Part shown: one piece after another, positions 4,079 through 18,919 of the stretch | Layout of the letters: each line of letters starts with the position of its first letter | Position numbering within the stretch: the stretch's first letter is position 1 | IMG/VR virus record: IMGVR_UViG_3300017963_004045 | Reading direction: 5' to 3' (one strand) | DNA length: 20,000 nt | Source: an uncultured virus (IMG/VR IMGVR_UViG_3300017963_004045) | Lineage: Duplodnaviria > Heunggongvirae > Uroviricota > Caudoviricetes | Translations under genes and position numbers: made by a program | Notes under the pieces: generated by a model | Database searches by the model: none | What the model saw: only the letters and a program-made list of their open reading frames with translations | Told to the model about the DNA's origin: nothing

Positions 4079-5096
4079 CAAAGCCACGCTCCTCTTGTTC
4101 TTGTAATCTCCTTTCCATCTCGCCTATCCTGTTCAGTAGGAATGTCTGTTGGTCATCGTTGATTATGCCTTCGTGCTTCCATTTCTCGACCATTTGCCTG
4201 TCGAATTCGGCACTCAGCGATGGCACATCAGACCGCAACGCCCTCATCCCATCATCTATCTGATTCCTCTCGATTAATACGAGCATATCATCAATAGACT
4301 TGGAATATTTGGAAACCTCTACCTTCAACAGCCGTCTTTGATTCTCAAGAACATCCTGAGAATATTGTGCTTTCGCACTGAGATTCTCGGCAATGCCATC
4401 GGCAACTTCCTTCTGTTTTGCTAACCGAGTCTGAAGTGCTTCGAGTTTCCTCAAGCGTGTTGTCGCATCAGCCAGTCGCATCCAAACTCCATCGTGTCTC
4501 TCCTGTAGAGTCTCCAACTTAATCTGGTTCTCTTCATACAACTGCTGATACTGATAGGTTCTCTGTCGCTCTCTGATGAGTTTCCGAAGCCTCTGGTCTG
4601 ACAGTTGATAACCATCGATTTGAGAAAACAAACCAATGCGGGAAACGAGCAATAGTTTTCCATTGTCAAGAACTTTGTAGCCATCTCTCGTTGGGATGAA
4701 GAATCCCTCTTTCGCAAGAGGATGTGCGATGTAGTCCTTTGGCTGTCTGATGTTCCTCGTGCCCTCGTAATAGAAGCCATTCTTGGTAGTGAAAAAGACC
4801 CGAATTAACTGGTCATTCACCTGCTTCATGCCCACATAATACCCAAGAAAGCCATTATGCTCCCAGTCATTAACATTGCTTCCCGTAACCTCCCCGTCTA
4901 CGCTAATGACAGGAGCACCCAACTCTACGGGGATGTGATAATCACCGAGAGCAAGTTTCTTGGCTATCAATTCCTTTGCCAGTTTAGAGGTCTCTACCTG
5001 ACTCTCTCTTGAACGCCTCTCGAAATGCTTCGCAAGTTTATCGAATTCAGGGTGATACCCCATTCCATCAGTTTCATCTCTTTGTGCACTGCTCAT
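3789..5096 (-). CDS. Coiled-coil hypothetical protein
   Basis: 435-aa ORF with a globular N-terminus, a long heptad-like middle and a low-complexity acidic/Ser tail. ATGA coupling with the upstream gene. Confidence 0.8.
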   Translation of the reverse strand: MSSAQRDETDGMGYHPEFDKLAKHFERRSRESQVETSKLAKELIAKKLALGDYHIPVELGAPVISVDGEVTGSNVNDWEHNGFLGYYVGMKQVNDQLIRVFFTTKNGFYYEGTRNIRQPKDYIAHPLAKEGFFIPTRDGYKVLDNGKLLLVSRIGLFSQIDGYQLSDQRLRKLIRERQRTYQYQQLYEENQIKLETLQERHDGVWMRLADATTRLRKLEALQTRLAKQKEVADGIAENLSAKAQYSQDVLENQRRLLKVEVSKYSKSIDDMLVLIERNQIDDGMRALRSDVPSLSAEFDRQMVEKWKHEGIINDDQQTFLLNRIGEMERRLQEQEERGFDETGRGHPSEGSLGNEASDIESQSVDSPTGLETGKAGLRGTKGDGKLSGIASKSKEKLVESYDSLKSLARGRQDSPDEESGSESEENDSESEESTE

Positions 5097-5695
5097 TCAT
5101 CATCACCTTTCCATGTTCCTTGTGCCTTCATGATATGTCGGGTGTAATCCTCTCGGCTTCCTGTGGGATTCTTGCAACCGAACCTTCTCCGAGCCATCTT
5201 TTTCAGATTGCCAAACGGCATATCAGTCAGGAATTCTCTCGTGTATATCTTTCCCTTCTTTTCAGGTTTTACCGCAGAAGGCTTAGTTTCAGGCTCGGTT
5301 GCCACTGCGGTCTGAGGTGTTGCAACGGGTGTTGGTTTTTGCTGAGGAACAGCCTTTCCTGTCTTTGGCACTGGAGGGTGCTCTGGCTTATTATCCATGA
5401 CCTTTCCAATACCTGCAAAAGACCGAGCCGTTTTTTCGATTTCCCTCAGTTCTTCCTCAAACTCCCTAATCTTGAGTTTCAGTGAGTTATCCACGCCCCT
5501 GAGTTGGGTAATCTCCTTAGAGATGGAATCAAACCTTGAAGAAATACCCTTGTGGGAGTCGATTATGTAATCCATCAACTCTCGATTATCCTCAGCGAAC
5601 TTTGAATAGTTCATCATGCCTTGCTCCAATCTATGTAGCCGAGCATCCGTCATTCGTATGAAAGTGGCTTGTTTTTCCGCATCTTTCCCGTCCAT
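5093..5695 (-). CDS. Coiled-coil protein with Pro/Thr/Lys linker and C-terminal Rho_N/HeH-like module
   Basis: The C-terminus 'YTREFLTDMPFGNLKKMARRRFGCKNPTGSREDYTRHIMKAQ' resembles helix-extended-helix nucleic-acid-binding domains. Confidence 0.65.
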   Translation of the reverse strand: MDGKDAEKQATFIRMTDARLHRLEQGMMNYSKFAEDNRELMDYIIDSHKGISSRFDSISKEITQLRGVDNSLKLKIREFEEELREIEKTARSFAGIGKVMDNKPEHPPVPKTGKAVPQQKPTPVATPQTAVATEPETKPSAVKPEKKGKIYTREFLTDMPFGNLKKMARRRFGCKNPTGSREDYTRHIMKAQGTWKGDDE

Positions 5696-5708: not shown

Positions 5709-7313
5709 TTAGAAGTTCTGGAAGGGGTCTGCTCCACCGCTACCAGTCCCTTTCTTCTGTCCGCTTGGGGGAAATGCACCTGTCAACTTGAATACGATGC
5801 CCTTTTCCTTAGCAACTATTAAGACAAAGATGACGAGGATTACCCACCAGAGCCAATAATCGCCCCACATATCCCTTGATAGGGATATTGTTTGGTCGTC
5901 CATGTCACCGCCATATTCATATTCGACAGTTACCAGTTTACCGCCAAAGAAACCGCCCTTGTCTCCACTGGACAGTGGAATTGTGCAACTGAATGAACCC
6001 GTTGACCTTGATTTCACACTCTGTTCAAAGTTTACCTCAGCACAACTAATCTGAACTCTTGCATCGGATTTACCGTTGCCCGACCTGACTCCAACTACCT
6101 TCCCAGTGACATAGATGTAGTCCTTATTCTCGGATTGCCTTACTGTGAAGTCCTCAATCTGGTAGGTTTCACTATAAGTAACACTCGTTGAAGCCGTCAG
6201 TCCCTCATGACTGAGGGAGAAAGTGTATGTCCCTGTTTCTGTGGTAGTGAATGTTCCAACTCCATTGCTAAGTGTAATCTGGTTGGATGTGCTATCCGAA
6301 GTAACCTGCAAAGAGATAGATTCCTGTGGGGCTTGACCATCTATCAAAAGGGTTATTGAGGTCTGACCATCTGCTGTAAACGAAGTTGCTTGGAGACTAA
6401 CCACTGGGTTGTAGGAGATTGTCTCTAAATACAATTGCCCCCCATCCTGATATTGCAGTTGATAGTTACCCTTCTCCTCTGCCTCAAGTGTTGCAGTCCC
6501 CGTAACAAGAGCCAAGTCAACCATTGTCCCATCAGGATTAACCACTCTAATAGAACCGCTTTGAATGAACCCTGTGCCTTCTTGGAAGAGGTTAATAGCA
6601 TATCTATTACCCGTCTTGACTATGTTCCAAGTTATAGTTAAATTCGTGTCACCACCATTTCCACCTCCAGAAGATGATTCCTCTACCTCTATCGCTCCTT
6701 CCCAGAAGTAGTCAGTATTCTCGATACTCATCTCAACGCTGTGAGTCCCAGATTCCGTAAAAGTTATTGGAAATGACGACTTTCCATCATGTAAGACATG
6801 GTATAACCAAAATACAGAATTACTCGGTTCAGTGACTTCAATCTCAATTATGTAGTTCTTGTCCTCAAGGTCAGATTCTTCAACCGAGAATGTGGCGGGT
6901 TCGTCAGCAACGATTTCAACAGGGTAATCCACATCTAATTGGAAAGAACCCGTCCCTTCAAAAACAACAGGTGTTGAAACAATTGTTGTCCCTACCACGA
7001 CTTTCACATACCCGTCCCCCATTTGGTCGGGACTTGAAAATGTTATATTCAGAGTCCCATTAGCATCCGTCATATTGGACGCAATACCTTCAACTGTAGT
7101 CCCACTTGGAAATACGATGTCAATTCGAGCAGTGGAGTTGACTGGAAACCCCGTTCCATTGACATAGATCGTTTCCTGTGGTTGCAAAGTTGTATCAGGC
7201 TCAATCGTTACGACTGCCTGAGCACTTGCATTAAACGGTATCAGCATCGCACTGATAGTGAAGGCGACAGCCAGAAAAACTGCTATAGTTTTCATGTTGA
7301 TTTTCCACCCCAT
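5709..7313 (-). CDS. Cell-surface/envelope protein: signal peptide, beta-rich (Ig-like) domains, C-terminal TM anchor
   Basis: Signal peptide (MKTIAVFLAVAFTISAMLIPFNASAQA; the start may be 7295), Thr/Ser/Gly/acidic beta-rich body, several N-x-S/T sequons, and TM helix WLWWVILVIFVLIVA followed by KEK. Confidence 0.8.
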   Translation of the reverse strand: MGWKINMKTIAVFLAVAFTISAMLIPFNASAQAVVTIEPDTTLQPQETIYVNGTGFPVNSTARIDIVFPSGTTVEGIASNMTDANGTLNITFSSPDQMGDGYVKVVVGTTIVSTPVVFEGTGSFQLDVDYPVEIVADEPATFSVEESDLEDKNYIIEIEVTEPSNSVFWLYHVLHDGKSSFPITFTESGTHSVEMSIENTDYFWEGAIEVEESSSGGGNGGDTNLTITWNIVKTGNRYAINLFQEGTGFIQSGSIRVVNPDGTMVDLALVTGTATLEAEEKGNYQLQYQDGGQLYLETISYNPVVSLQATSFTADGQTSITLLIDGQAPQESISLQVTSDSTSNQITLSNGVGTFTTTETGTYTFSLSHEGLTASTSVTYSETYQIEDFTVRQSENKDYIYVTGKVVGVRSGNGKSDARVQISCAEVNFEQSVKSRSTGSFSCTIPLSSGDKGGFFGGKLVTVEYEYGGDMDDQTISLSRDMWGDYWLWWVILVIFVLIVAKEKGIVFKLTGAFPPSGQKKGTGSGGADPFQNF

Positions 7314-7367: not shown

Positions 7368-7625
7368 CTACTCGTCACCCTCAGTTTTCATCCCCATGCT
7401 CTTTCTGACGGATTCACTCGTTTTCTGTCTGTTACAAGCAACCTTATCGTCACCTGACAACTGACCGCAATCCAGCGAACCGTCATCCTTACGGGGCATT
7501 AGGTCAATGCGTTCCTTCTTCTTCAATTCTACACAAGCCCGATAGTCTTGTCCTGCCAGTCCTTCACAAACAAGACCACCATCTTCGTCTCTTGGGAATC
7601 CTTTACCCTTCTCTTTTTCTGCCAT
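7368..7625 (-). CDS. Small protein with two internal Cys-pair repeats
   Basis: Repeats PRDEDGGLVCEGLAGQDYRAC and PRKDDGSLDCGQLSGDDKVAC. GAGGTG SD upstream. Confidence 0.75.
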   Translation of the reverse strand: MAEKEKGKGFPRDEDGGLVCEGLAGQDYRACVELKKKERIDLMPRKDDGSLDCGQLSGDDKVACNRQKTSESVRKSMGMKTEGDE

Positions 7626-7734: not shown

Positions 7735-8410
7735 GCCCGAATTTTTCAATTGTAAAATTTCGGGCAACTCCAGACAAGCATTTTCGACATACACGCATAT
7801 GTAGTCCCCTGTAACCACAGGACTCGCCCTGTAAATACAGGCATACCTGTCGAGTAGCACCCGCCCTGTAACCGAGTAAATGCCTGTAAGTTACTCGCAT
7901 TGCATTACCGCAATGCCTCCAATACCTTTCCTCTCTGCCACGAAAAACCAGTAAAAAAATGCCTTCCAGTGCGAACCTGTAAACCAGTAACCAGTGCGAG
8001 TAACCCCAATCGGAAAATACAGGATGGGAACTCTCCCAATACCAGTAAAACCAGTTGGAACATATACTGGCGGGACTGGAATACCCGACCAGTAATTAGG
8101 CTCAAAACTTACTGGTTTCGGTGCGAACCTTACAGGTTTCCATGCGAGTAAACCCAACCAGTAGCGTCCAGTAAGTTAAACCAGTGGGAAACCAGTAAAT
8201 TCCAACGGGTATTGAAACCATGCGAATGTATTCTCATGTCTGGCTGAATAGAGTTTTTCCAATTGGAAAAACATATCCAGAGGGTAAAAATCCTATGGGA
8301 AGCCCCATTTTCGATTGAATTCATATTACAGGCTATATTTCCAATTGGAAATCACATATGAGCCAGTGCCTGTAATTACAGGCAAAAGGTTTATATACTG
8401 GTTACTGGGC
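7735..8410. repeat. Short-repeat and palindrome-rich non-coding region; candidate replication origin/control region
   Basis: About 22 CCWGTA copies on both strands (hand count). Perfect palindromes at 8253-8272, 8337-8352 and 8367-8384 and an imperfect one at 7735-7765. It lies at the point where the two gene arms diverge. Confidence 0.7.
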
Positions 8411-8424
8411 AAAGGTTTATATAC
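8385..8424 (+). promoter_or_regulatory. Tandem duplicated BRE/TATA boxes for the right arm
   Basis: AAAGGTTTATATAC occurs at 8385-8398 and 8411-8424. Confidence 0.6.
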
Positions 8425-8538
8425 CCTATATCCGTTTTTCTATTATCAATCAATTGAGCCACTTCAACACCCGTTACATAATGGGGGACGAAGTGTCGAA
8501 GGTTGATTGACACTATATAAGAAAAAAGAGGAATTCGC

Positions 8539-8949: not shown

Positions 8950-8990
8950 ACCGAGTGAAGTAACACTCGTTGAAAAGGAAGGTGAGAAAC

Positions 8991-10715
8991 TTGGAAAATT
9001 GGATAGAAGATAAGGAAAAGGGCTTGTTGAGAAAGCGGAACAACCTCTCGTCAACGGTATGTATTTGCATTACCAACGACTCTAAGAGGGTTGAGGAACT
9101 CGAAATCTTCGCTCTGAACTCTGGGCTTATCTTAGATAAGGCAGACGACATTGAGGGCGAAGCGGTTCTCGTTTATGACGACTGGACTGGTCTGGCTCGT
9201 CTTAATGAGGACGGAAGGCGTGAGACTGTAAGTCTTAGCGAAGAGGACGCTTTCGGAGACAACACCCAGACTGGTCAAGGGATACCTATAGATATGTATC
9301 TCTCAACGATGGACGCTGAGTTGAAGCGGAAGTCTGAACGCAACACAACGGTTATCATAAAGGGGCTAATCCAGACCTCAGCACAACTCAATAAGGCACT
9401 TAACAGTTGGACAGTGGACGACACAATGATGGACTTGGACTCAACGGTTGTTGTTTTCATTCCCCGAAGGGACATCATTCCCGACTCTATAAGGGCGAAG
9501 TGCAATGTCATTGAGATAGAGCCGAGTAACCCAGAGGAGCGAAGGGAACAGATTGTAGAGATAGCCAAGCAACTGGGCTGTCCCCCTTCTAAAGAGGAAA
9601 TAGACCGTATCGTTGAGATAACTGGCGGTCTCGACAGAACCCAGTTGGAGTCAGCACTCATAGAGACAATATACTTACATAAAGACACTCCGAACCCTAT
9701 CAATCAGGAGCATATCTCTAAGTTGAAGGGCGAACTCATATCCAGAGAAGCAATCCTTACAGTGCAAATGAACGGCAACAGGGGTTTCGAGTCCGTTGGG
9801 GGCTACAAGACTCTTAAAGAGTTCATCCAGAAGCACATCATAAAAGTGCTGAACAACAGAGAGAGAGCCAACCACTTCGGCATTAACTTACCGAAGGGTG
9901 TCTTAGTGTTCGGGATGGGGGGCACTGGCAAGACCATCTTGGCGAAGGCACTGGCAAAGGAACTTGGCATACCCTTCGTAGAGTTGAATGTCCAGAACAT
10001 CTTCTCTAAGTATGTCGGTGAGAGCGAACAGCGAACTGAGGAAGCCACTAAACTTATAGACGCACTCTCTCCATGTCTGGTCTACATTGACGAGATTGAC
10101 GCAATGGGCGGTCAGCGTGGGGGCACTGACTTAGATGGCGGTGCTACAAGAAAGGTAATGAGCGTTCTCATGCAGTGGTTGGCTAAGCCCCGAAACTCGT
10201 TGGTCTGGGCGACCACTAATAGAGTGCAAGACTTGGACGAAGCCTTTATGAGAGTGGGACGCTTTGACTACATTCTCCCCCAGTTCCTGCCAGACGGTGA
10301 GGCTCGAAGGGAAATCCTGAAAGTTCACTTAGAGGTTGTTCGGACAGTTCCGCACAAACTCACTAAGGGCGAACTCGAAGATATTGCCAGTCAGACCGAA
10401 GGCTACAATGGGGCTGAGGTTGAGAGTCTGGTCAATCAAGCCAGTCTTTACGCATTCGACAGCACTCGTGAGAAGGTAACATTGGACGACTTTAAGAGGG
10501 CACTGACCGATATGAAGGTCAACAAGACCGAAAGGGCTAAGACTCAGCAAGAGTATGTCGGTTACGCCAATCAGTTCGTCAACCACAAATCCTTCTTAGA
10601 GAAGAGCGTTGAGGAATACTCCAAGCCACTGTCCAGAGTCGAGAAGGCGAAAGCCAGACTTAAAGTAAAAGGTGAGCCAGAAGGTGAACCAGAGAGCGAA
10701 GAGAACGAAAACTAA
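8991..10715 (+). CDS. AAA+ ATPase, Ycf46-like architecture (degenerate N-terminal domain plus intact C-terminal AAA)
   Basis: Walker A GMGGTGKT, pore loop SKYVGESE, Walker B YIDEID, SRH TTNR..LDEAFMRVGRFD. The TTG start at 8991 follows GGAAGGTGA. Confidence 0.9.
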   Translation: MENWIEDKEKGLLRKRNNLSSTVCICITNDSKRVEELEIFALNSGLILDKADDIEGEAVLVYDDWTGLARLNEDGRRETVSLSEEDAFGDNTQTGQGIPIDMYLSTMDAELKRKSERNTTVIIKGLIQTSAQLNKALNSWTVDDTMMDLDSTVVVFIPRRDIIPDSIRAKCNVIEIEPSNPEERREQIVEIAKQLGCPPSKEEIDRIVEITGGLDRTQLESALIETIYLHKDTPNPINQEHISKLKGELISREAILTVQMNGNRGFESVGGYKTLKEFIQKHIIKVLNNRERANHFGINLPKGVLVFGMGGTGKTILAKALAKELGIPFVELNVQNIFSKYVGESEQRTEEATKLIDALSPCLVYIDEIDAMGGQRGGTDLDGGATRKVMSVLMQWLAKPRNSLVWATTNRVQDLDEAFMRVGRFDYILPQFLPDGEARREILKVHLEVVRTVPHKLTKGELEDIASQTEGYNGAEVESLVNQASLYAFDSTREKVTLDDFKRALTDMKVNKTERAKTQQEYVGYANQFVNHKSFLEKSVEEYSKPLSRVEKAKARLKVKGEPEGEPESEENEN

Positions 10716-11348: not shown

Positions 11349-11399
11349 GTAGCCGAAGTCGAAATCCAACACCCGTTGGAAAAAAGGAAGGTGAACACT

Positions 11400-12803
11400 A
11401 TGGGAGACGAAATACAGAGCGATAACTTTGAGGGATACCGCAACAGGTTTTTGAAAGCCAGTGCTGACGAAAACACTGAGGAACTTCGGGCAATACTCTC
11501 AGAGGCACTTAAAGACGAGACACTTCTTGAGAACGAGAAGTCTCGAATTCAGGTGTCCATCAACAAGAGCCTGAAAGCCATCGAAGGCGAACCGACACTT
11601 AAAGGGGATACCGTTGCTGGAAAGAAACTCATTGCCACGAGCCAAGACTTAGAGAATGTCCAGACCATTGGGCATTTGATAGGCTTCTCAGTGAGTGAGC
11701 GTGAGGATTATGTCTATGTGCCGAATGAAGCACTGGACAAATACTGGAACGACAACGGACTCCCCCAGAACTTTAAGCCCAATCCCATAAGGGAGAAGGA
11801 CGCTTTTAAAGTGGCTTGTCGGTCATTTGAAGGCACTGAACCAGTCAATGAGGAAATGGTCAAGACCTTCGGCTCTTCTTATAGAGTGCGATGGGATGTT
11901 ACCGCACTGTCCCCCAATGAGTATCAGATTACCCGCAAGATAATCGAACTCATAAAGGACGAGAAATCCAAGAGGGACAAACTCGAAGAGAAGGTGCTGA
12001 GCCATGAGAACATCTGTAAGTTCATCATGGACGAGACCACAACCGAAGTATCTGGCAAGAGGGAAGGCACAACGAAGAAACAGGTTACTCTCTCTTACAG
12101 GGCGATTGCCGAGAAGGACGAATACAAAGACCTCACCGCACAACTTAAAGAGCAACTCGTTGAGCAAATCGAGTGGTATAAGAACCACACCACTGGCAAG
12201 AAGATAAGGGACGCTATTAGAGACATGGTTTATAGGTGTCATGGCGTTAACCTCACAATGTCCAGTGGGGGAGCGTGGTTTGTGCCAGTCGAATATGAAA
12301 GCACCGTTGCCAGAATGAAGGCATTCGTTAAGTGGGTTGGCGAGAACCACACTTATATAAGTGGTCGAGCCACACTCTTGACGATACCCGTCATTGACGA
12401 CTACGATGTGAAGGCTCAAATCGAGCAAGATGTCTATGCACTCGTTGAGAACCGCATGGAGAAAATGCTCAGAGACACTCTAAGGCAACTGGAAGGCACT
12501 GACGAAGATAAGGTTGAGGAACTTCTGGCACGAAAAATCGCAGAGCATGGCAAGAACATAAAGTTGCTGGACGACTACAAGAAGATACTCTCTAAGAAGA
12601 TAAATGTCGAACTCGAATTCATCGACTACGAGAGTGCCAAGATAAAGGGCGGTAAGCAACTATCTGGAAGGGCGAAGGCATTACTCAGAAAACTGACCAC
12701 TACTGACCAGTTCAATGAGAATGCCACGCCTAAGCCAGAGTCCGAGCCAGTGCCTGAGCCAGAGACAGTCCCAGAGACCGAGCCAGAGACAGTAGCGGAA
12801 TAG
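11400..12803 (+). CDS. DUF6744-like protein with PE-repeat tail
   Basis: 'P..I.EKDAFKVACR' and 'GGAWFVP' motifs recalled from this MGE-associated family. GGAAGGTGA SD before ATG 11400. Confidence 0.6.
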   Translation: MGDEIQSDNFEGYRNRFLKASADENTEELRAILSEALKDETLLENEKSRIQVSINKSLKAIEGEPTLKGDTVAGKKLIATSQDLENVQTIGHLIGFSVSEREDYVYVPNEALDKYWNDNGLPQNFKPNPIREKDAFKVACRSFEGTEPVNEEMVKTFGSSYRVRWDVTALSPNEYQITRKIIELIKDEKSKRDKLEEKVLSHENICKFIMDETTTEVSGKREGTTKKQVTLSYRAIAEKDEYKDLTAQLKEQLVEQIEWYKNHTTGKKIRDAIRDMVYRCHGVNLTMSSGGAWFVPVEYESTVARMKAFVKWVGENHTYISGRATLLTIPVIDDYDVKAQIEQDVYALVENRMEKMLRDTLRQLEGTDEDKVEELLARKIAEHGKNIKLLDDYKKILSKKINVELEFIDYESAKIKGGKQLSGRAKALLRKLTTTDQFNENATPKPESEPVPEPETVPETEPETVAE

Positions 12804-12846
12804 GGCTTCGGCAGAGTCCAACACCCGTTGGAATTTGCCGAGTCCC
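12803..12846. repeat. 44-nt imperfect inverted repeat with the YAAC-N4-GTTR motif at its apex
   Basis: GGGCTTCGGCAGAGTCCAAC-ACCC-GTTGGAATTTGCCGAGTCCC; 16 of 20 pairs are Watson-Crick and 2 are G-T. Confidence 0.7.
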
Positions 12847-12873
12847 TCTTATATATTCGCAAGAGGTGAGCGT

Positions 12874-13952: not shown

Positions 13953-14765
13953 ATGACGCTACAGATAAGACTCACTGGTAAGTATATCGGAGTGAAACGA
14001 GCCAAGCAATCTATAGAGTTCATTCGTGAAATGGCAGTCTTACAAATGCTCGATGTGAGGGACATTGCCGAGATGGGCTATTTAGAGTATCTGGATAAAG
14101 GGCATAGGCAAATGACCTTTCGCCCAGACTCAGACCTGACAGAGTATAATGCCCAGATACTTCACGAAGGGGATAATGCCATCAGAACCAAATCCTTCGG
14201 CATTGAAGTGAACTTCCCTAATGATAGTTATCTGACCGTCCAGTTCGCCCACATGATAAACAATAAGTGCGTTTTTGCCTTCGGCAGTGCCGACTTCGAC
14301 TTAGTATGGTATGCTGAGGATACCCCCTCTAAGAGACAGGCAGTCAACAATCACTTATGGTCTATCCATACCTTAGAGACAATCAAAAGCAACTTCATGC
14401 CTGAACTGGAAATCAGGGACGAAAGCAACTATCATAAGACACCCCCAGACGCTGAGACATTGGCATACTGGCGACAGGAAAAACTTGAAGGTCATGGCGT
14501 TGACCGAGAAGCCGACTTCGAGAACCTTCAAAACCACAATCTTGAACATCTGTTGAGCCAGATAGACTTCGACATAGCCAGTCTGACCGCAAGAAGAATG
14601 CACCGTTCCGATGTGCTGACTTCAAAGCGTATTGCAAAAATGCGAATGTGGTTGAACCATACCCCAGAGGTCGAAGAGTATTCATATATCACGCAGACCA
14701 AGAAAGACATTAGAAGGGTGCTGAGCCTTTTCGGGATACGCCCCGAAGAACAGGCGGTGCGATGA
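13953..14765 (+). CDS. Hypothetical protein
   Basis: 270-aa ORF starting at the first ATG after the motif at 13918. Confidence 0.75.
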   Translation: MTLQIRLTGKYIGVKRAKQSIEFIREMAVLQMLDVRDIAEMGYLEYLDKGHRQMTFRPDSDLTEYNAQILHEGDNAIRTKSFGIEVNFPNDSYLTVQFAHMINNKCVFAFGSADFDLVWYAEDTPSKRQAVNNHLWSIHTLETIKSNFMPELEIRDESNYHKTPPDAETLAYWRQEKLEGHGVDREADFENLQNHNLEHLLSQIDFDIASLTARRMHRSDVLTSKRIAKMRMWLNHTPEVEEYSYITQTKKDIRRVLSLFGIRPEEQAVR

Positions 14766-14793
14766 GGTGGCACACCTCGAAAGCGGAAAAATC

Positions 14794-14971
14794 CAACGCT
14801 TGTTGATTTGATGGCTTGGGATGAGCCAGTGTCGATTTCGGCATGGCAAAATCAACCCCCCATGTATCCACTCCTACGGGATGATGACCAGTCGTAGACT
14901 GGCATCACCCGTATGATTGGATACTATGAACGCATTAGCGTAAGCCAATCGGTAGAAATCAACGGGTGTTG
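14794..14971. other. Motif-bracketed hairpin module 1
   Basis: Motifs at 14794 and 14960. Hairpin 14861-14928 with a C-GTA-G loop. Confidence 0.7.
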
Positions 14972-14987
14972 AACGGAAGGCGATAGC

Positions 14988-15236
14988 ATGGTTAAAAAAG
15001 TCTTTATAAAAGGTGCGTGGTTGCACACACTGGATACCGAGTTATCCGAAGAGGAATTTATAGCGAAGTCTGGGGGCATGGACGCATTAGAGCCATACAG
15101 AGCCTACCCCTTCGTTAGTCTGGTGCTTGACAACCCCGAAGAGCCTATACTGGTCGGGCATACCAACGGTAGAACCATCAGTCTAACAATGTCTGGGCGT
15201 GGGCACGAGCATTATCAGACAATGGAATGGAAGTGA
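14988..15236 (+). CDS. Hypothetical protein (82 aa)
   Basis: GGAAGGCGA SD directly after the motif. Confidence 0.7.
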   Translation: MVKKVFIKGAWLHTLDTELSEEEFIAKSGGMDALEPYRAYPFVSLVLDNPEEPILVGHTNGRTISLTMSGRGHEHYQTMEWK

Positions 15237-15312
15237 GAGCATTCTGCCAGACCGCAGAACTGAAGGGCTTGAGGCTTTCCCTGAAGTCCCGAAGGCAAAC
15301 CACACCAAAAAG

Positions 15313-15504
15313 CAACAGTCGTTGAAACTCAAAACAGCAGTGCCAGAATATAGATTGCACCCACGCAAAATACAAAATAATACGCTAATCATTAGACCGT
15401 TACCTTTGAGGGTATCTCTCCCGAAGGGAGCGATACCCGAAACACAGGTAACGCTCTAATGCCAGAAATTGACATCCGAGAAAAGTAAAATCTAACGAAT
15501 GTTG
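15313..15504. other. Motif-bracketed hairpin module 2
   Basis: Motifs at 15313 and 15493. Hairpin 15390-15461 with a C-GAA-G loop. Confidence 0.7.
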
Positions 15505-15519
15505 AACGGAGTTGAGCAA

Positions 15520-16107
15520 ATGGAAAAGAACTGGATACTAATAGGAAAAGGCATAATAAACTGGGGCAGGGATGAGCGTATAGGAGACCGCTATGGGACA
15601 GTTGGATTATTTGACGGTAGCCAAGATAATCTATTGCCCATTAAAGATGTTCGTGGGCATGGTAAACTGATTGCCCACATACGCAAGACCAGACAATCCT
15701 ACCACATAGGCGATGTATTCAGGGGATTATCCCCAAAGACACCCAAAGAAAACGAATTCATCGAACTGGGCGAAGGGACGGTTTTCTTCGAGCATAAGAA
15801 TGGCATTCAGGGACGCTATATCGGGCTAAAACCAGACGAACCCAGAGACAGCGACTGGTTGAACCCCCAAGCCCTCTATCGTTGCCATAGCCAGACCGTT
15901 GACCTATACTTTGCTCCCACGCAAACATGGATATGTGAAGAATGCGGAACTGAGTATGCGAGTAGCACAGGCGATAAACCCACCCCACCCAAATGGAAGG
16001 ATGGGCACGAGTGCAAACTAACCCCCAAGCCGAGTGCAGAAGAGCAGGTGGCTTCTGAGCAAGTCCCCTCGTCCTCTCACGCACAGGCGACCAGTTCCCA
16101 CACTTGA
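15520..16107 (+). CDS. Hypothetical protein with C-terminal CxxC...HxC zinc-finger-like motif
   Basis: ATG 15520 after GGAGTTGA. Contains WICEECG...GHEC. Confidence 0.75.
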   Translation: MEKNWILIGKGIINWGRDERIGDRYGTVGLFDGSQDNLLPIKDVRGHGKLIAHIRKTRQSYHIGDVFRGLSPKTPKENEFIELGEGTVFFEHKNGIQGRYIGLKPDEPRDSDWLNPQALYRCHSQTVDLYFAPTQTWICEECGTEYASSTGDKPTPPKWKDGHECKLTPKPSAEEQVASEQVPSSSHAQATSSHT

Positions 16108-16189
16108 AACCGAAGCAGGACGACCTCCAACACGGTCTGCAAAGGATGAAAGTCGGAAAAAACCAACGAGTGTTGAAGGAGGAATAGAA

Positions 16190-16690
16190 ATGCCAGATTG
16201 GGAAGATATAATAGATAACCTCGTGGGCGATAGGTATGATGTCAAAGAGATACTAACAGCCCTGCACGAGAACGAGAACCATACAGGGATATGGGAAGAA
16301 ATAGGCGAAGAACTACTATTGCCAGACATGGACTGGACGCAACTGGAAGGCATACTACAGCATATCGAGAGCGAATACAAGAGCGAATTCATGGAATACT
16401 TAGAAGAGAACCTTCGGGACGACCTCTTGGAACAGATTAGAAACCAAGAAACCGAAGCCCTACTGGACGCTCTACGCACAATCCGAGATACGCACCCAGA
16501 CGAATGGGACAAGATAGTAACGCCAGAATTGATGAACGCATGGGACAGAGCCAAACGCCAGACCACCGAGCCGACCACCTCACGACCACCTCAAAACGAT
16601 GACGATGATGACGAGGAGGCGGGTTGTGAGGCTAAAACAGAGGAAAAATCAACGGTTGTTGAAAATGAGAAATCCGAGAGCCAGATTTAA
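16190..16690 (+). CDS. Highly acidic helical protein
   Basis: AGGAGG SD before ATG 16190. Very rich in D/E, with a poly-D tract. Confidence 0.75.
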   Translation: MPDWEDIIDNLVGDRYDVKEILTALHENENHTGIWEEIGEELLLPDMDWTQLEGILQHIESEYKSEFMEYLEENLRDDLLEQIRNQETEALLDALRTIRDTHPDEWDKIVTPELMNAWDRAKRQTTEPTTSRPPQNDDDDDEEAGCEAKTEEKSTVVENEKSESQI

Positions 16691-16825
16691 ATAATCGGTT
16701 GCTGATATGTCGGTCTACAGAGGATACAGGAGAGTGTTCCTCTACCGAAGGTAGCGGAACTATCTCCGTGTATCCGTTGTAGGCGAGGAACGAGATGTCC
16801 AGTCGGAAAAAACCAACAGGCGTTG
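16650..16825. other. Motif-bracketed hairpin module 3
   Basis: Motifs at 16650 and 16814. Hairpin 16713-16784 with a C-GAA-G loop. Confidence 0.7.
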
Positions 16826-16831
16826 ATTGAA

Positions 16832-17155
16832 ATGGCAGTCATTCGGAAGGATGATAGGGGATTATACGCAAATGTGGGCGGTTATATCGTAAGACCTCTA
16901 CTTGATACCCAATATAAAGAGGGCGACCATGTGGATGGACACCATTACGGTGGAACTACTACGGTGGGCATGGGCAAGAATAAGGACACCCCCAAGCGTG
17001 AGTATGAAGAGTATTGGAGAACCGATTGGAAGGGGCAATACGACCTGATAGAGCAAAGGTTAGGCAAAGATGAAGCCGACAGGTTTCTTGAAAATGAGAG
17101 GACTCTAATGCGGTTAAAGATGAAGTTCCAGAGGGAAAAAAGGAACAGGGGTTAG
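16832..17155 (+). CDS. Hypothetical protein
   Basis: ATG 6 nt after the motif. 107-aa ORF. Confidence 0.7.
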   Translation: MAVIRKDDRGLYANVGGYIVRPLLDTQYKEGDHVDGHHYGGTTTVGMGKNKDTPKREYEEYWRTDWKGQYDLIEQRLGKDEADRFLENERTLMRLKMKFQREKRNRG

Positions 17156-17158
17156 ATT

Positions 17159-17473
17159 ATGAACATCGAAAAATGCGATTATTGTTACTCAAAGCCCATG
17201 AGCGAATACGAGCATAATCTGGAATATGCCATGAAGGAATGCGAGAAATACGATAAGCCAGAGGTAGTAATCACCAATCATACGAACTCTCGAACCTATT
17301 CAGTGAGTCTTGGCGAATTCAGGCGAGAATTCATCAGGGAAAAGGACGCTGAGTTGTTTGCCGAGATATTGGAAAGGGAAATGGAAAACCAGAACCACCC
17401 AGAACCCGAACCAGAACCCAAACGCACAAGGCTTGATGTGGCGAAGAGGAAGATAGAACAGAGCAAAAAATAA
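17159..17473 (+). CDS. Hypothetical protein with N-terminal CxxC
   Basis: 104-aa ORF. Its stop TAA is the start of the motif TAACGGGTGTTA. Confidence 0.7.
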   Translation: MNIEKCDYCYSKPMSEYEHNLEYAMKECEKYDKPEVVITNHTNSRTYSVSLGEFRREFIREKDAELFAEILEREMENQNHPEPEPEPKRTRLDVAKRKIEQSKK

Positions 17474-17484
17474 CGGGTGTTAAA

Positions 17485-17823
17485 ATGACAGAGACCGAGA
17501 ATAAGATAGAACCAGATTGCTATCCATTGCGTGAGCATATTGGTCATAAAATAAGGCTCGTAAAATACGCACTGGACGGTATGGTATTGAATTGCTATGA
17601 TAAGCAATGCCCAGATAACGAAGGGGAAGGCACAGACCTTATGGAATGCTATCCCCCAGAGACCTACGGAGAGGATGAGCCAAAGAATGTCGCTGAGCAT
17701 GATAGGGCTTGGTATCCGAAACTCAGGAAGCACTATCGCCACCCCCTCGAAATCCGAGAGGATGGAGAAGAGGTGCAGTTGTTCTGCAAAAGGTGTTCTG
17801 AGGTCATATTCGCACAAAAGTAA
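17485..17823 (+). CDS. Cys/His-rich hypothetical protein
   Basis: HIGH...C....C and HYRH...CKRC half-repeats. Bounded by a motif on each side. Confidence 0.7.
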   Translation: MTETENKIEPDCYPLREHIGHKIRLVKYALDGMVLNCYDKQCPDNEGEGTDLMECYPPETYGEDEPKNVAEHDRAWYPKLRKHYRHPLEIREDGEEVQLFCKRCSEVIFAQK

Positions 17824-17837
17824 CGGGTGTTGATTAA

Positions 17838-18317
17838 ATGAAGATACTGGTAGCGACAAAAGAGACTCAGGGCTATATGCAGAATGACTTCAATGATGTG
17901 CCCGATTACGAGCCAGTGAGATTTGCGGATAATATCAATCGATACATGATTGGAATACACTGTATCAAGGGCACGACCACTATTAAAGTAATCAATGTCA
18001 ATATATCTTTCAATGAGTTTTACCAGATGATATTAAATTCAAGAATAAAAGAAGAGCAAATGCGAAGCGTCATATTGAATAATAATGACATACCACCGCT
18101 TACGGATGAGATAAAGAAATCATTATTATTCGACACCCACGAGATATGCAGGATTGCAAACCAGTATCCAGTGGGCACAATATTAGAATATCACTCAAAC
18201 CCCACCAGACACTTCAAGATTAGGCAGAAGGAGAATGAGCCAGACATGGAAACGGCAAAGATACCGCCACGAGCCGTTGGGGATAGCCAGAAGGAAGAAA
18301 AAGAGGCAGAAAGTTGA
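17838..18317 (+). CDS. Hypothetical protein, AT-rich coding sequence
   Basis: 159-aa ORF starting 5 nt after the motif. Confidence 0.7.
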   Translation: MKILVATKETQGYMQNDFNDVPDYEPVRFADNINRYMIGIHCIKGTTTIKVINVNISFNEFYQMILNSRIKEEQMRSVILNNNDIPPLTDEIKKSLLFDTHEICRIANQYPVGTILEYHSNPTRHFKIRQKENEPDMETAKIPPRAVGDSQKEEKEAES

Positions 18318-18356
18318 CTGCGAGGAGGCGGGAAACACATCAAACTCAACGAAATG

Positions 18357-18508
18357 TAACAGGCGTTGGAAGGCTCTCGTCAGAATAGCCAGACGGGTAA
18401 AAAGGGGAAAATCTTCATGCGAACATCACCCCACAACACGACTGCGATGAGGACATCCTCAATCGGAGTTGAGAGGTCGAACAAAGCCCTATCCAACGCC
18501 TGTTGGAT
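18357..18508. other. Motif-bracketed module 4 with exact terminal inverted repeats
   Basis: AACAGGCGTTGGA (18358-18370) is the reverse complement of TCCAACGCCTGTT (18492-18504). Short internal hairpins. Confidence 0.6.
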
Positions 18509-18521
18509 TTCCATCACCAGA

Positions 18522-18562
18522 GAAATATTTAAATAGGGAGAAAAAGGGAAATGCTTAAATAC
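18522..18562 (+). promoter_or_regulatory. Tandem putative BRE/TATA boxes
   Basis: GAAATATTTAAATAG (18522) and GAAATGCTTAAATAC (18548) are 26 bp apart, the same spacing as the pair at 8385/8411. Confidence 0.55.
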
Positions 18563-18919
18563 CGAACCCCTGTTAGTGTTATTGAGGAATTCGCATGGTG
18601 AGGGTAGCCAATCGAGTTTCGATGATTAGTCTGGACATGGGGCACGAACCGAAAAACCGTTTGAAAATGTGTGGCTCACTGGCTATCGTCAGACGATATG
18701 GTATTGTCCGCAATGAGACGAGAAGCGGAAAGACCAGTTGCCAGTCTGCCATTGGTGGCATGGCTCACATTGGAGAGACAGTGTTTGAACCCCAGATAAG
18801 ACGCACCCTTCGGAATGGTGTTCCAGTGCGTTTGGACGCTCCCGAAGGTTTCTGGGGTAGGCGTGATACCTCATGCCCAGAACCAAATTACCCAACAACC
18901 TAAAAGGAAGGTGAAAAAA

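Follow-up and report, generated by a model that had tools for sequence, protein, structure and literature searches.

DNA signals that act as folded single strands, among them ssi sites, the early promoters of phage N4, Frpo and integron attC sites, are known from bacteria and their elements; the replication and gene control of archaeal viruses and plasmids are largely unknown, and to our knowledge no folded single-stranded DNA signal has been described for them. The stretch of DNA analysed here, which will be called the window, comprises 20,000 nucleotides (nt) of the IMG/VR record IMGVR_UViG_3300017963_004045, an uncultured virus recorded under Caudoviricetes, and it contains three long hairpins whose apical loops are of the kind found in ssi sites and N4 promoters. 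The open reading frames (ORFs) of the window lie on the - strand up to about 7.6 kb and on the + strand from about 8.5 kb to the end, and the hairpins belong to the + strand block.

The loops in question are those of the DNA mini-hairpin, in which, by the account of PMC3201870, the closing C-G pair matters for stability. The part of PMC13037366 that treats GNA mini-hairpin loops describes their RNA versions as much less stable, and reports the heptamer CCGAAGG in ssiA of RSF1010 and GGA or GAA loops in the early promoters of N4. The 5′ G and 3′ A of the N4 loop, with its closing G:C pair, allow the hairpin to be extruded, and the stable hairpin resists the single-stranded DNA-binding protein (SSB) (PMC4496689). 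A different kind of repeated signal is the promoter-early stem-loop (PeSL) of T4-type phages, described in PMC2839356 as a promoter plus stem-loop joint that flanks ORFans.

Three long hairpins with shared traits

Each hairpin lies between two copies of a quasi-palindrome, YAAC-N4-GTTR, and a gene follows. The motif pairs that the initial annotation reported (14794/14960, 15313/15493 and 16650/16814) have the coordinates it gave, and the genes that it placed after each module do start there (ATG 14988, 15520 and 16832). The parts of the three modules are as follows.

14794-14806, + strand: first palindrome of module 1, CAAC-GCTT-GTTGA
14823-14829, + strand: box GAGCCAG of module 1, 29 nt past the motif start
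14861-14928, + strand: hairpin H1, 68 nt with 29 Watson-Crick pairs, apex C-GTA-G centred at 14895
14960-14972, + strand: second palindrome of module 1, 31 nt after H1 and 28 nt before ATG 14988
15313-15325, + strand: first palindrome of module 2
15340-15346, + strand: box GTGCCAG of module 2, 27 nt past the motif start
15390-15461, + strand: hairpin H2, 72 nt with 29 Watson-Crick pairs, apex C-GAA-G centred at 15424
15493-15505, + strand: second palindrome of module 2, of the TAAC form, 31 nt after H2 and 27 nt before ATG 15520
16650-16662, + strand: first palindrome of module 3, within the last codons of the gene at 16190-16690
16678-16684, + strand: box GAGCCAG of module 3, 28 nt past the motif start
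16683-16693, + strand: TATA-like AGATTTAAATA, which follows the module 3 box
16715-16782, + strand: hairpin H3, a 68-nt paired core with 27 Watson-Crick pairs and 1 G.U, apex C-GAA-G centred at 16748
16814-16826, + strand: second palindrome of module 3, 31 nt after H3 and 18 nt before ATG 16832, where DNA homology with the related contig L035 begins

When the + strands of H1, H2 and H3 were folded as RNA, the z scores were -7.59, -6.81 and -7.35, and those of the - strands were -6.29, -7.72 and -7.40; none of 200 shuffles matched the native fold in any of the six cases. Folded as DNA, the + strands scored -7.40, -6.43 and -5.98 and the - strands -7.75, -8.77 and -7.87, so that the structures first noticed by inspection stand against shuffled controls as RNA and as DNA, on both strands, with z from -5.98 to -8.77. 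A 90-nt sliding fold of the whole window, with a background mean of about -17 to -18 and a standard deviation of about 6, has the hairpins as its three extremes (-43.6, -44.3 and -48.0, the next being -38.4). They also rank top among all hairpins with 3-nt loops on both strands of the window and of the 20-kb metagenomic contig L035, having 27-31 enclosing pairs and folding energies of -38.8 to -47.3, compared with -28.7 for the best found elsewhere.

The + strand apices are CGTAG (H1), CGAAG (H2) and CGAAG (H3), as originally read, and they lie 65, 69 and 66 nt before the second palindrome, a small correction to the 66-70 nt first given. Similarly, the coordinates of H1 and H2 were right, and the core of H3 is 16715-16782 instead of 16713-16784. 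Given the first apex, the chance of two further C-GNA-G apices on the same strand is about 2.4e-4. The duplex word GTATC/GATAC is indeed in every stem, at differing heights and in differing orientation (on the 5′ arm in H1 and H2, flipped to the 3′ arm in H3); a 5-bp word common to three random stems of these helix lengths was obtained in 0.23% of 200,000 simulations. From the last hairpin pair to the second palindrome there are 31, 31 and 31 unpaired nt. Over the three hairpins, 85 pairs are Watson-Crick and 1 is G.U, and five of the six 1x1 mismatches oppose two pyrimidines.

The apical 17 nt of H2 and H3 are alike save for one base pair that has changed on both sides, a compensatory change, and below the apex the sequences of these two hairpins are wholly different with the pairing kept; a MAFFT alignment of the five non-coding slots described below was uninformative beyond this apex. 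Because the pairing of H2 and H3 survives both the compensatory change and the turnover of sequence, the hairpin structure is under selection, and the analysis supports the hairpins as a real, structure-selected, sequence-divergent family.

The covariance models of Rfam 15, applied to both strands of the whole window at E values up to 1, gave no match. Intrinsic terminators, archaeal or bacterial, were considered and ruled out, since a T-run is absent 3′ of all three hairpins. Contigs from four DNA runs have 15 variant places in 6 kb, none of them at 14293-18462 and therefore none in the hairpins, so that the population offers no covariation.

Small protein-coding frames were also considered as the source of the hairpins.

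14811-14897: slot frame of module 1, ATG at motif +17 (the usual distance from motif to start), 28 codons
15340-15459: slot frame of module 2, GTG at motif +27, 39 codons, running through H2
16665-16694: slot frame of module 3, ATG at motif +15, 9 codons
16669-16782: further frame of module 3, running through H3

In H1 the stop coincides with the apex, in H2 and H3 with the 3′ foot; the slot frames have no mutual similarity, their best tblastn E value in L035 being 0.21. Frames placed differently in each hairpin and unmatched in L035 were rejected as the source of the hairpins; conserved protein-coding sequence, which the initial annotation had named as one of the findings that would speak against its view, is not what these stretches are.

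Non-coding slots

The modules belong to a set of non-coding slots, of which the window has a fourth.

18357-18506, + strand: slot M4, without a long hairpin, with the motif at 18357 and the box TAGCCAG at 18386-18392 (motif +29)

In M4 an inverted copy of the motif at 18494 is fully complementary to the copy at 18357. L035 has one non-coding slot, at 18519-18635, with a box at 18547. A box of the form G[A/T]GCCAG is thus found 27-29 nt after the first motif at 14823, 15340, 16678 and 18386 of the window and at 18547 of L035, and because the GCCAG-box word occurs only 14 times on the + strand of the window, five matches within a 3-nt register are not due to chance. The slots form a class of unit of their own; of the five (window and L035), three carry a long hairpin. 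The hairpins fill lineage-specific, gene-sized non-coding slots of a block of co-oriented small genes.

At 12732-12805, 12-nt periodic repeats of the GAGCCAGAGACA type encode the Pro/Glu-rich tail of a DUF6744 protein, and these repeats explain much of the excess of GAGCCAG on the + strand. Around M4, about 600 nt (18318-18919) have no convincing ORF and include TATA-like boxes at about 18525 and 18551, together with a structured stretch at 18790-18880 (z -4.2) that has no Rfam match; the region may be a longer non-coding RNA.

The gene-start palindrome

YAAC-N4-GTTR has 43 strand-matches in the window, where 4.8 are expected and none of 200 shuffles reaches 43; 30 sites are within one core mismatch. 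The + strand block has 20 exact sites, half of which (10/20) are followed at 14-35 nt by the ATG of an ORF with 50 codons or more, compared with 19% of random positions. Of the others, 8961 lies ahead of the gene of an ATPase, whose TTG start comes after a Shine-Dalgarno-like stretch; 19913 lies ahead of an ORF that the window end truncates; four are the first motifs of the non-coding slots; and 12819 forms the tip of a hairpin of 20 bp, beyond which come a TATA-like box and a small gene. Two geometries are seen, namely motif, Shine-Dalgarno sequence and ATG at 26-35 nt, and motif and ATG at 14-18 nt without a Shine-Dalgarno sequence. The - strand block has six palindrome sites in 7.7 kb, mostly away from gene starts. 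Copies outside the modules include the following.

16164-16176, + strand: palindrome before an ordinary gene, without a hairpin, followed by a Shine-Dalgarno sequence and ATG 16190
8961, 11367, 12819, 13683, 13918, 17471, 17821, 19211, 19494 and 19913: other copies of the palindrome

Judged by this distribution, the palindrome is a general gene-start signal of the lineage and not a part of the modules, to which it had seemed specific before its 20 exact copies in the + strand block were counted. Nor do the two flanking motifs close a special unit by pairing with each other, as had been suggested, because any two copies of a palindrome can pair: the spacers of modules 1, 2 and 3 are complementary at 4, 3 and 3 of 4 positions, 45% of 171 motif pairs reach at least 3, and the pairing extends to a 16-bp helix in module 1 only.

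The copies at 8961, 11367, 12819 and 13683 have spacers (ACCC/ACTC) that reverse-complement the commonest ones, GGGT/GAGT, and four or five copies with such spacers stand before + strand genes. Because both orientations occur before genes of the same strand, a symmetric protein would appear to recognise the motif in duplex DNA. Candidates for the palindrome-binding factor include two small proteins of the element, an RHH-like 101-aa product (2462-2767) and a conserved 85-aa product (7368-7625). The window has few canonical TATA-like boxes (8387, 8413, about 8514, 12849, 16683 and 18525), and therefore the palindrome is probably not an ordinary archaeal promoter. The TATA-like pattern overall is not enriched (26 matches with up to two mismatches versus 29.9 expected), and no box resembling the transcription factor B recognition element (BRE) with TATA was found at the expected distance from palindromes that lie 14-35 nt before an ATG. 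Among titles and abstracts on palindromic intergenic motifs of archaeal viruses, none describes YAAC-N4-GTTR.

The palindrome-tipped 20-bp hairpin lies right after the DUF6744 gene, in a segment (12803-12860) that continues with the TATA-like TTATATAT and leads to a 54-codon gene (ATG 12874); the segment looks like a joint of terminator and promoter. The matching place in L035 has a separate GC hairpin just upstream of the motif (9934). Another contig of 58 kb, from run X2 and of nearly equal depth (21.6 versus 20.2), matches the window only at the motif copies 12819-12843 and 16154-16181, with two mismatches each, and continues with a Shine-Dalgarno stretch and the ATG of another gene, so that the palindrome signal is in use either elsewhere in the element or in a co-resident relative.

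A relative without long hairpins

A full HMMER search with the DUF6744 protein of the window returned 138 hits, among them two relatives at 46% and 41% identity, one of which is encoded on L035; the clusters of both have no informative names. A word-based search with the same protein found only the protein itself. L035 is syntenic with the window (ATPase 47%, DUF6744 protein 45% and surface protein 42% identity), and the 82-aa product of w14988 and the 107-aa product of w16832, which adjoin modules 1 and 3, have L035 homologues at 67.5% and 62%. Each of the latter is preceded by the motif alone, and fold scans of the contig found no long hairpin. The genes at 13953-14765, 15520-16107 and 16190-16690 have no counterpart in L035, and DNA homology resumes at the motif (16810-17043 of the window, 13048-13271 of L035). 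Whole units differ between the window and L035 at motif joints.

The motif of L035 has a directional form, CAACGAGCGTTAGA, with 21 sites, 15 of which have an ATG at 14-33 nt. Motif sites number 2.6-2.7 per kb in both the window and L035; in 80 further viral loci with an ATPase gene, none above 38% identity, they do not exceed 0.39 per kb. Other searches for relatives gave little: no relative was found in viral_contigs by protein-anchored scans or in genome_contigs, a two-motif DNA pattern matched 34 loci of viral_contigs, all by chance and mostly in coding sequence, and metagenome_contigs yielded nothing in a first scan and L035 as the single relative in a second. None of the 20 ORFs of L035 has a match in Pfam.

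Folded DNA or folded RNA

The reading that we tentatively prefer is that the hairpins act as folded + strand DNA rather than as RNA. DNA action is favoured because the loop is the DNA-type, extra-stable one of RSF1010 ssiA and the N4 promoters, and the apex heptamer of H2 and H3, CCGAAGG, is exactly the one described for ssiA; the exceptional stability that the initial annotation ascribed to C-GNA-G loops in single-stranded DNA agrees with the description of ssiA and N4 in PMC13037366. In addition, the DNA folds are as far from their shuffles as the RNA folds are, and the palindrome 31 nt away, which is present in both orientations before + strand genes, fits recognition of duplex DNA rather than of RNA. 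The tally of 85 Watson-Crick pairs to one G.U pair also argues for DNA, since a long-lived RNA helix, by our own estimate, would be expected to hold several G.U pairs.

How the + strand might become single is suggested by the region between the two gene blocks.

7780-8440: divergent intergenic region with ACCAGTAA/TTACTGG- and CCTGTAA-type repeats (identified by eye), two AGGTTTATATA boxes and a GC-skew flip

The divergent region that separates the blocks is 900 nt long, and the sign of the GC skew flips there. The AGGTTTATATA boxes, both exact, are at 8387 and 8413 and are taken, by comparison with the consensus, to be archaeal BRE/TATA elements; the matching region of L035 (about 4950-5150) has like kinds of repeats. 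Positions 7780-8440 look like a putative replication origin with the main promoters. Because the GC skew flips at about 8 kb beside iteron-like repeats, the + strand of the arm that carries the hairpins is predicted to be the lagging-strand template.

The duplex might be opened by a replication fork that has set out from the putative origin near 8 kb, the parental + strand being the lagging-strand template of this arm, or by supercoil-driven extrusion. In the opened duplex, the C-GNA-G mini-hairpin at the apex would nucleate the folding of the + strand into a long hairpin, and a structure-specific protein would read the folded strand in a fixed 31-nt register with the gene-boundary palindrome, itself an apparent binding site on double-stranded DNA. 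The long GNA-nucleated DNA hairpins might then be cis signals that are read by structure, are held in 31-nt register with an operator-like palindrome found at almost every gene of the accessory block, and are carried in exchangeable non-coding cassettes, a proposal that is plausible and far from secure. We infer the folding in vivo, the exposed strand, the origin and the protein partner. If the hairpins do act as DNA, the first choice of function, doubtful when taken by itself, would be an ssi-type site for loading or priming of - strand synthesis; the second choice, which is less likely again, would be a supercoil-sensitive structural element that sets the expression of the gene behind it.

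Several points weigh against DNA action. A single-stranded stage of the element is assumed by it, and the 28-29 ORFs of the window and the 20 ORFs of L035 gave no match to a primase, SSB, Rep, relaxase or polymerase family. The stems of 27-29 bp, with bulges and pyrimidine/pyrimidine mismatches, greatly exceed the 5-7 bp of ssiA or N4 hairpins, and three sites within 2 kb are an odd spread for priming sites. The GC-skew flip coincides with the flip in gene orientation, and so the origin is only putative. L035 is without the hairpins, which are therefore not essential to the replication of the lineage, and the scarcity of G.U pairs could also mean that the hairpins are young inverted duplications. 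Furthermore, the units sit where a transcribed gene would, in sense orientation and at a fixed distance from a motif linked to expression, a gene-like placement that suits a role in RNA or transcription equally well.

If the hairpins act at the RNA level instead, which is possible and somewhat less probable, the slot would yield or join a structured RNA in long + strand transcripts, few in number and begun at a handful of TATA promoters: either a small RNA of 150-170 nt with a single-stranded 5′ part that includes the GAGCCAG box and a stabilising hairpin at its 3′ end, or a processing, stability or attenuation hairpin in a polycistronic mRNA, analogous to the ribonuclease III (RNase III) sites of phage T7 or the put RNAs of HK022. 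The slots are sense-oriented, take the place of a gene and are bounded by the pre-gene motif, as such an RNA would require; canonical TATA-like boxes are so few that most genes must be co-transcribed; and the TATA-like box of module 3 (16683-16693), at the usual archaeal spacing of about 25 nt from TATA to start, would place the start of an RNA at the H3 foot. The single G.U pair belongs to the + strand, the RNA folds have z of about -7, and pairing has been kept through sequence turnover. The extra-stable loops of RNA, however, would be tetraloops. The C-GNA-G triloop is without special stability in RNA according to the discussion of such loops in PMC13037366, only 1 of the 86 pairs is G.U, every hairpin lacks a T-run after it, no Rfam match was obtained at E values up to 1, and the two orientations of the motif argue that the partner signal is read as DNA. 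The DNA and RNA readings stay close.

Three further explanations are less probable than either. The hairpins might be passengers, derived from an inverted duplication or a miniature palindromic element and at most insulating, in PeSL-like shuffling cassettes or decayed mobile palindromes, with the motif serving as a recombination joint for the gain and loss of entire units. The window and L035 do differ by whole units with conserved neighbours, their DNA homology does resume at the motif, and the PeSLs of T4-type phages are precedents for promoter and stem-loop joints flanking ORFans in the account of PMC2839356; but the PeSL stem-loops terminate beside a sigma-70 promoter, whereas here there is no T-run and the palindromes have no BRE/TATA-like box at the expected distance. 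Moreover, the hairpins share only the apex and one 5-bp word, yet keep their length, apex, mismatch type and 31-nt offset, and structure kept without shared sequence indicates selection on structure and not copies of a mobile repeat, which makes this explanation improbable. That the hairpins are single-stranded DNA promoters of the N4 or Frpo type for the gene right after each module, as the initial annotation proposed, is very unlikely: a GNA triloop closed by C-G does resemble the early promoters of N4 and a small gene does follow each unit, but the N4 hairpin is on the template strand, with a 5-7-bp stem and its loop centred at -11 (PMC4496689), whereas the GNA loops here are on the coding strand of the downstream genes, with centres 93, 96 and 84 nt before the ATG in modules 1, 2 and 3. 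The stems of 27-29 bp are four times too long for such a promoter and would enclose any start placed 11 nt from the loop, and no virion-type RNA polymerase was found with Pfam and PHROGs among the 28 ORFs of the window, which is 20 kb out of the 127 kb or more of the element. Least probable of all is that the hairpins are integron-like attC sites, another early suggestion, or parts of small protein-coding genes. The units do form a block of small, co-oriented ORFans, the hairpins do have bulged bases, the ATG at 14811 opens its 28-codon frame at the usual 17 nt from the motif, and the frames at 15340-15459 and 16669-16782 run through H2 and H3. However, the feet of the hairpins, which are of the CATG.../...CATG type in H1, CATTAGA/TCTAATG in H2 and CTACA/TGTAG in H3, have no attC core and inverse-core boxes (by the consensus), no integrase was found in the 20-kb window, and the frames sit differently in each hairpin, are mutually unlike and find nothing better in L035 than the E value given above.

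The element and its other genes

Among the 28 predicted proteins of the window, three have Pfam matches above the cut-off.

8970-10715: AAA+ ATPase, single-domain (Pfam)
11376-12803: DUF6744 protein (Pfam)
17838-18317: DUF7715 protein (Pfam)

PHROGs and NCBIfam added no named family for the window proteins, the NCBIfam hits being below threshold. Relaxase, integrase, primase and RNA polymerase families were not found in the window ORFs (20 kb; Pfam, PHROGs and NCBIfam), and thus the relaxase, integrase or virion RNA polymerase that the initial annotation suggested looking for on the element is not among the families found in 20 kb. No tRNA or tmRNA gene was found in the window. An identical DUF6744 protein is also encoded on a contig of 126,812 bases, so that the 20 kb of the window belong to an element no shorter than 127 kb, and DNA of the window was found in sediment and seawater metagenome runs, the seven runs listed including no RNA run.

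In the phage collection, the window ATPase is matched best by the AAA+ ATPase of Acidianus tailed spindle virus, and the closest named cellular relatives of its domain, among the matches listed, are archaeal CDC48 proteins. Because of these two affinities and the AGGTTTATATA boxes, the element looks archaeal, as it had been taken to be from the start; from its sequence, it looks like a large, essentially ORFan virus or plasmid of archaea. The structure model of the DUF6744 protein (predicted local distance difference test score 79) has no fold match in the PDB at E values up to 0.001, and a literature search on DUF6744 matched no papers. For the 270-aa protein encoded upstream of module 1, the ESM Atlas gave only unnamed clusters. 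On the - strand, 5709-7313 encodes a 534-aa protein with a signal-like N-terminus, a long Thr/Ser-rich middle of beta type and a hydrophobic C-terminal anchor, which is probably a surface or virion protein; the rest of the - strand block is without annotation.

Comparison with known systems

The hairpins are real, statistically solid and not previously described. They belong to a lineage with almost no recognisable genes that displays two cis codes, namely a quasi-palindrome at gene starts, which is conserved between relatives at 45% protein identity and precedes most genes of one block, and a set of related hairpin cassettes, for which the chemistry of the loop suggests folding as DNA. If they act as DNA, they would be the first signal system of the ssi or N4 kind in an archaeal mobile element and would provide a handle on how the element primes or regulates; if they act as RNA, they would be new viral small RNAs. 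In either case, the shortness of the units makes them suitable for direct probing and for metagenome searches.

Like the attC sites of integrons, the hairpins are conserved in structure, divergent in sequence and imperfect, with unpaired bases, and lie between small, co-oriented genes without promoters. Unlike attC sites, they have no core and inverse-core boxes at the foot (by the consensus), no integrase was found in the window, and copies of the element's own gene-start motif separate the hairpin from both neighbouring genes. The RNase III hairpins of the T7 early mRNA are irregular, about 60-70 nt long, situated between cistrons and alike in shape but not in sequence; their action is at the RNA level and requires RNase III, an enzyme missing from most archaea. 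The DNA-type triloop and the near absence of G.U pairs in the present hairpins would not be expected of them.

The early promoters of N4 have a 3-nt loop with a 5′ G, a 3′ A and a G:C closing pair, all of which CGTAG, CGAAG and CGAAG have as well (PMC4496689). They function by extrusion of the hairpin and are present in three copies in the early region, by PMC4496689 and the relevant part of PMC13037366, and the window also has three hairpins. They differ in having a 5-7-bp stem with conserved bases, on the template strand and centred at -11; the window hairpins have stems of 27-29 bp, and their GNA loops are on the coding strand, centred 84-96 nt upstream of the ATG. The ssi signals, which include ssiA and ssiB of RSF1010 and the G4-type complementary-strand origins, also consist of a DNA hairpin capped by a mini-hairpin, and they are defined by their structure on a specific strand, as is proposed here. 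The CCGAAGG of ssiA recurs in H2 and H3, but the whole of ssiA is 40 nt as described in PMC13037366, shorter than hairpins with stems of 27-29 bp. Furthermore, ssiA and ssiB are read by the RepB′ primase, whereas no primase family was found in the ORFs of the window or L035, and ssi sites are located at an origin, whereas the present sites are located in gene slots tied to a gene-start motif.

The PeSLs of T4-type phages resemble the present units in being a repeated intergenic signal with a stem-loop that flanks small ORFans in a plastic region, as PMC2839356 presents them, and relatives differ by whole units at the joints, as the window does from L035. A PeSL, however, comprises a sigma-70 promoter and a terminator stem-loop and is alike in sequence over about 100 bp in that presentation, whereas the repeated part here is a quasi-palindrome of 13-14 nt, and the hairpins are found at three of about 20 joints and diverge in sequence. 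The nearest known kinds are the ssi signals and the N4 promoters in loop chemistry, and the PeSLs in genome logic.

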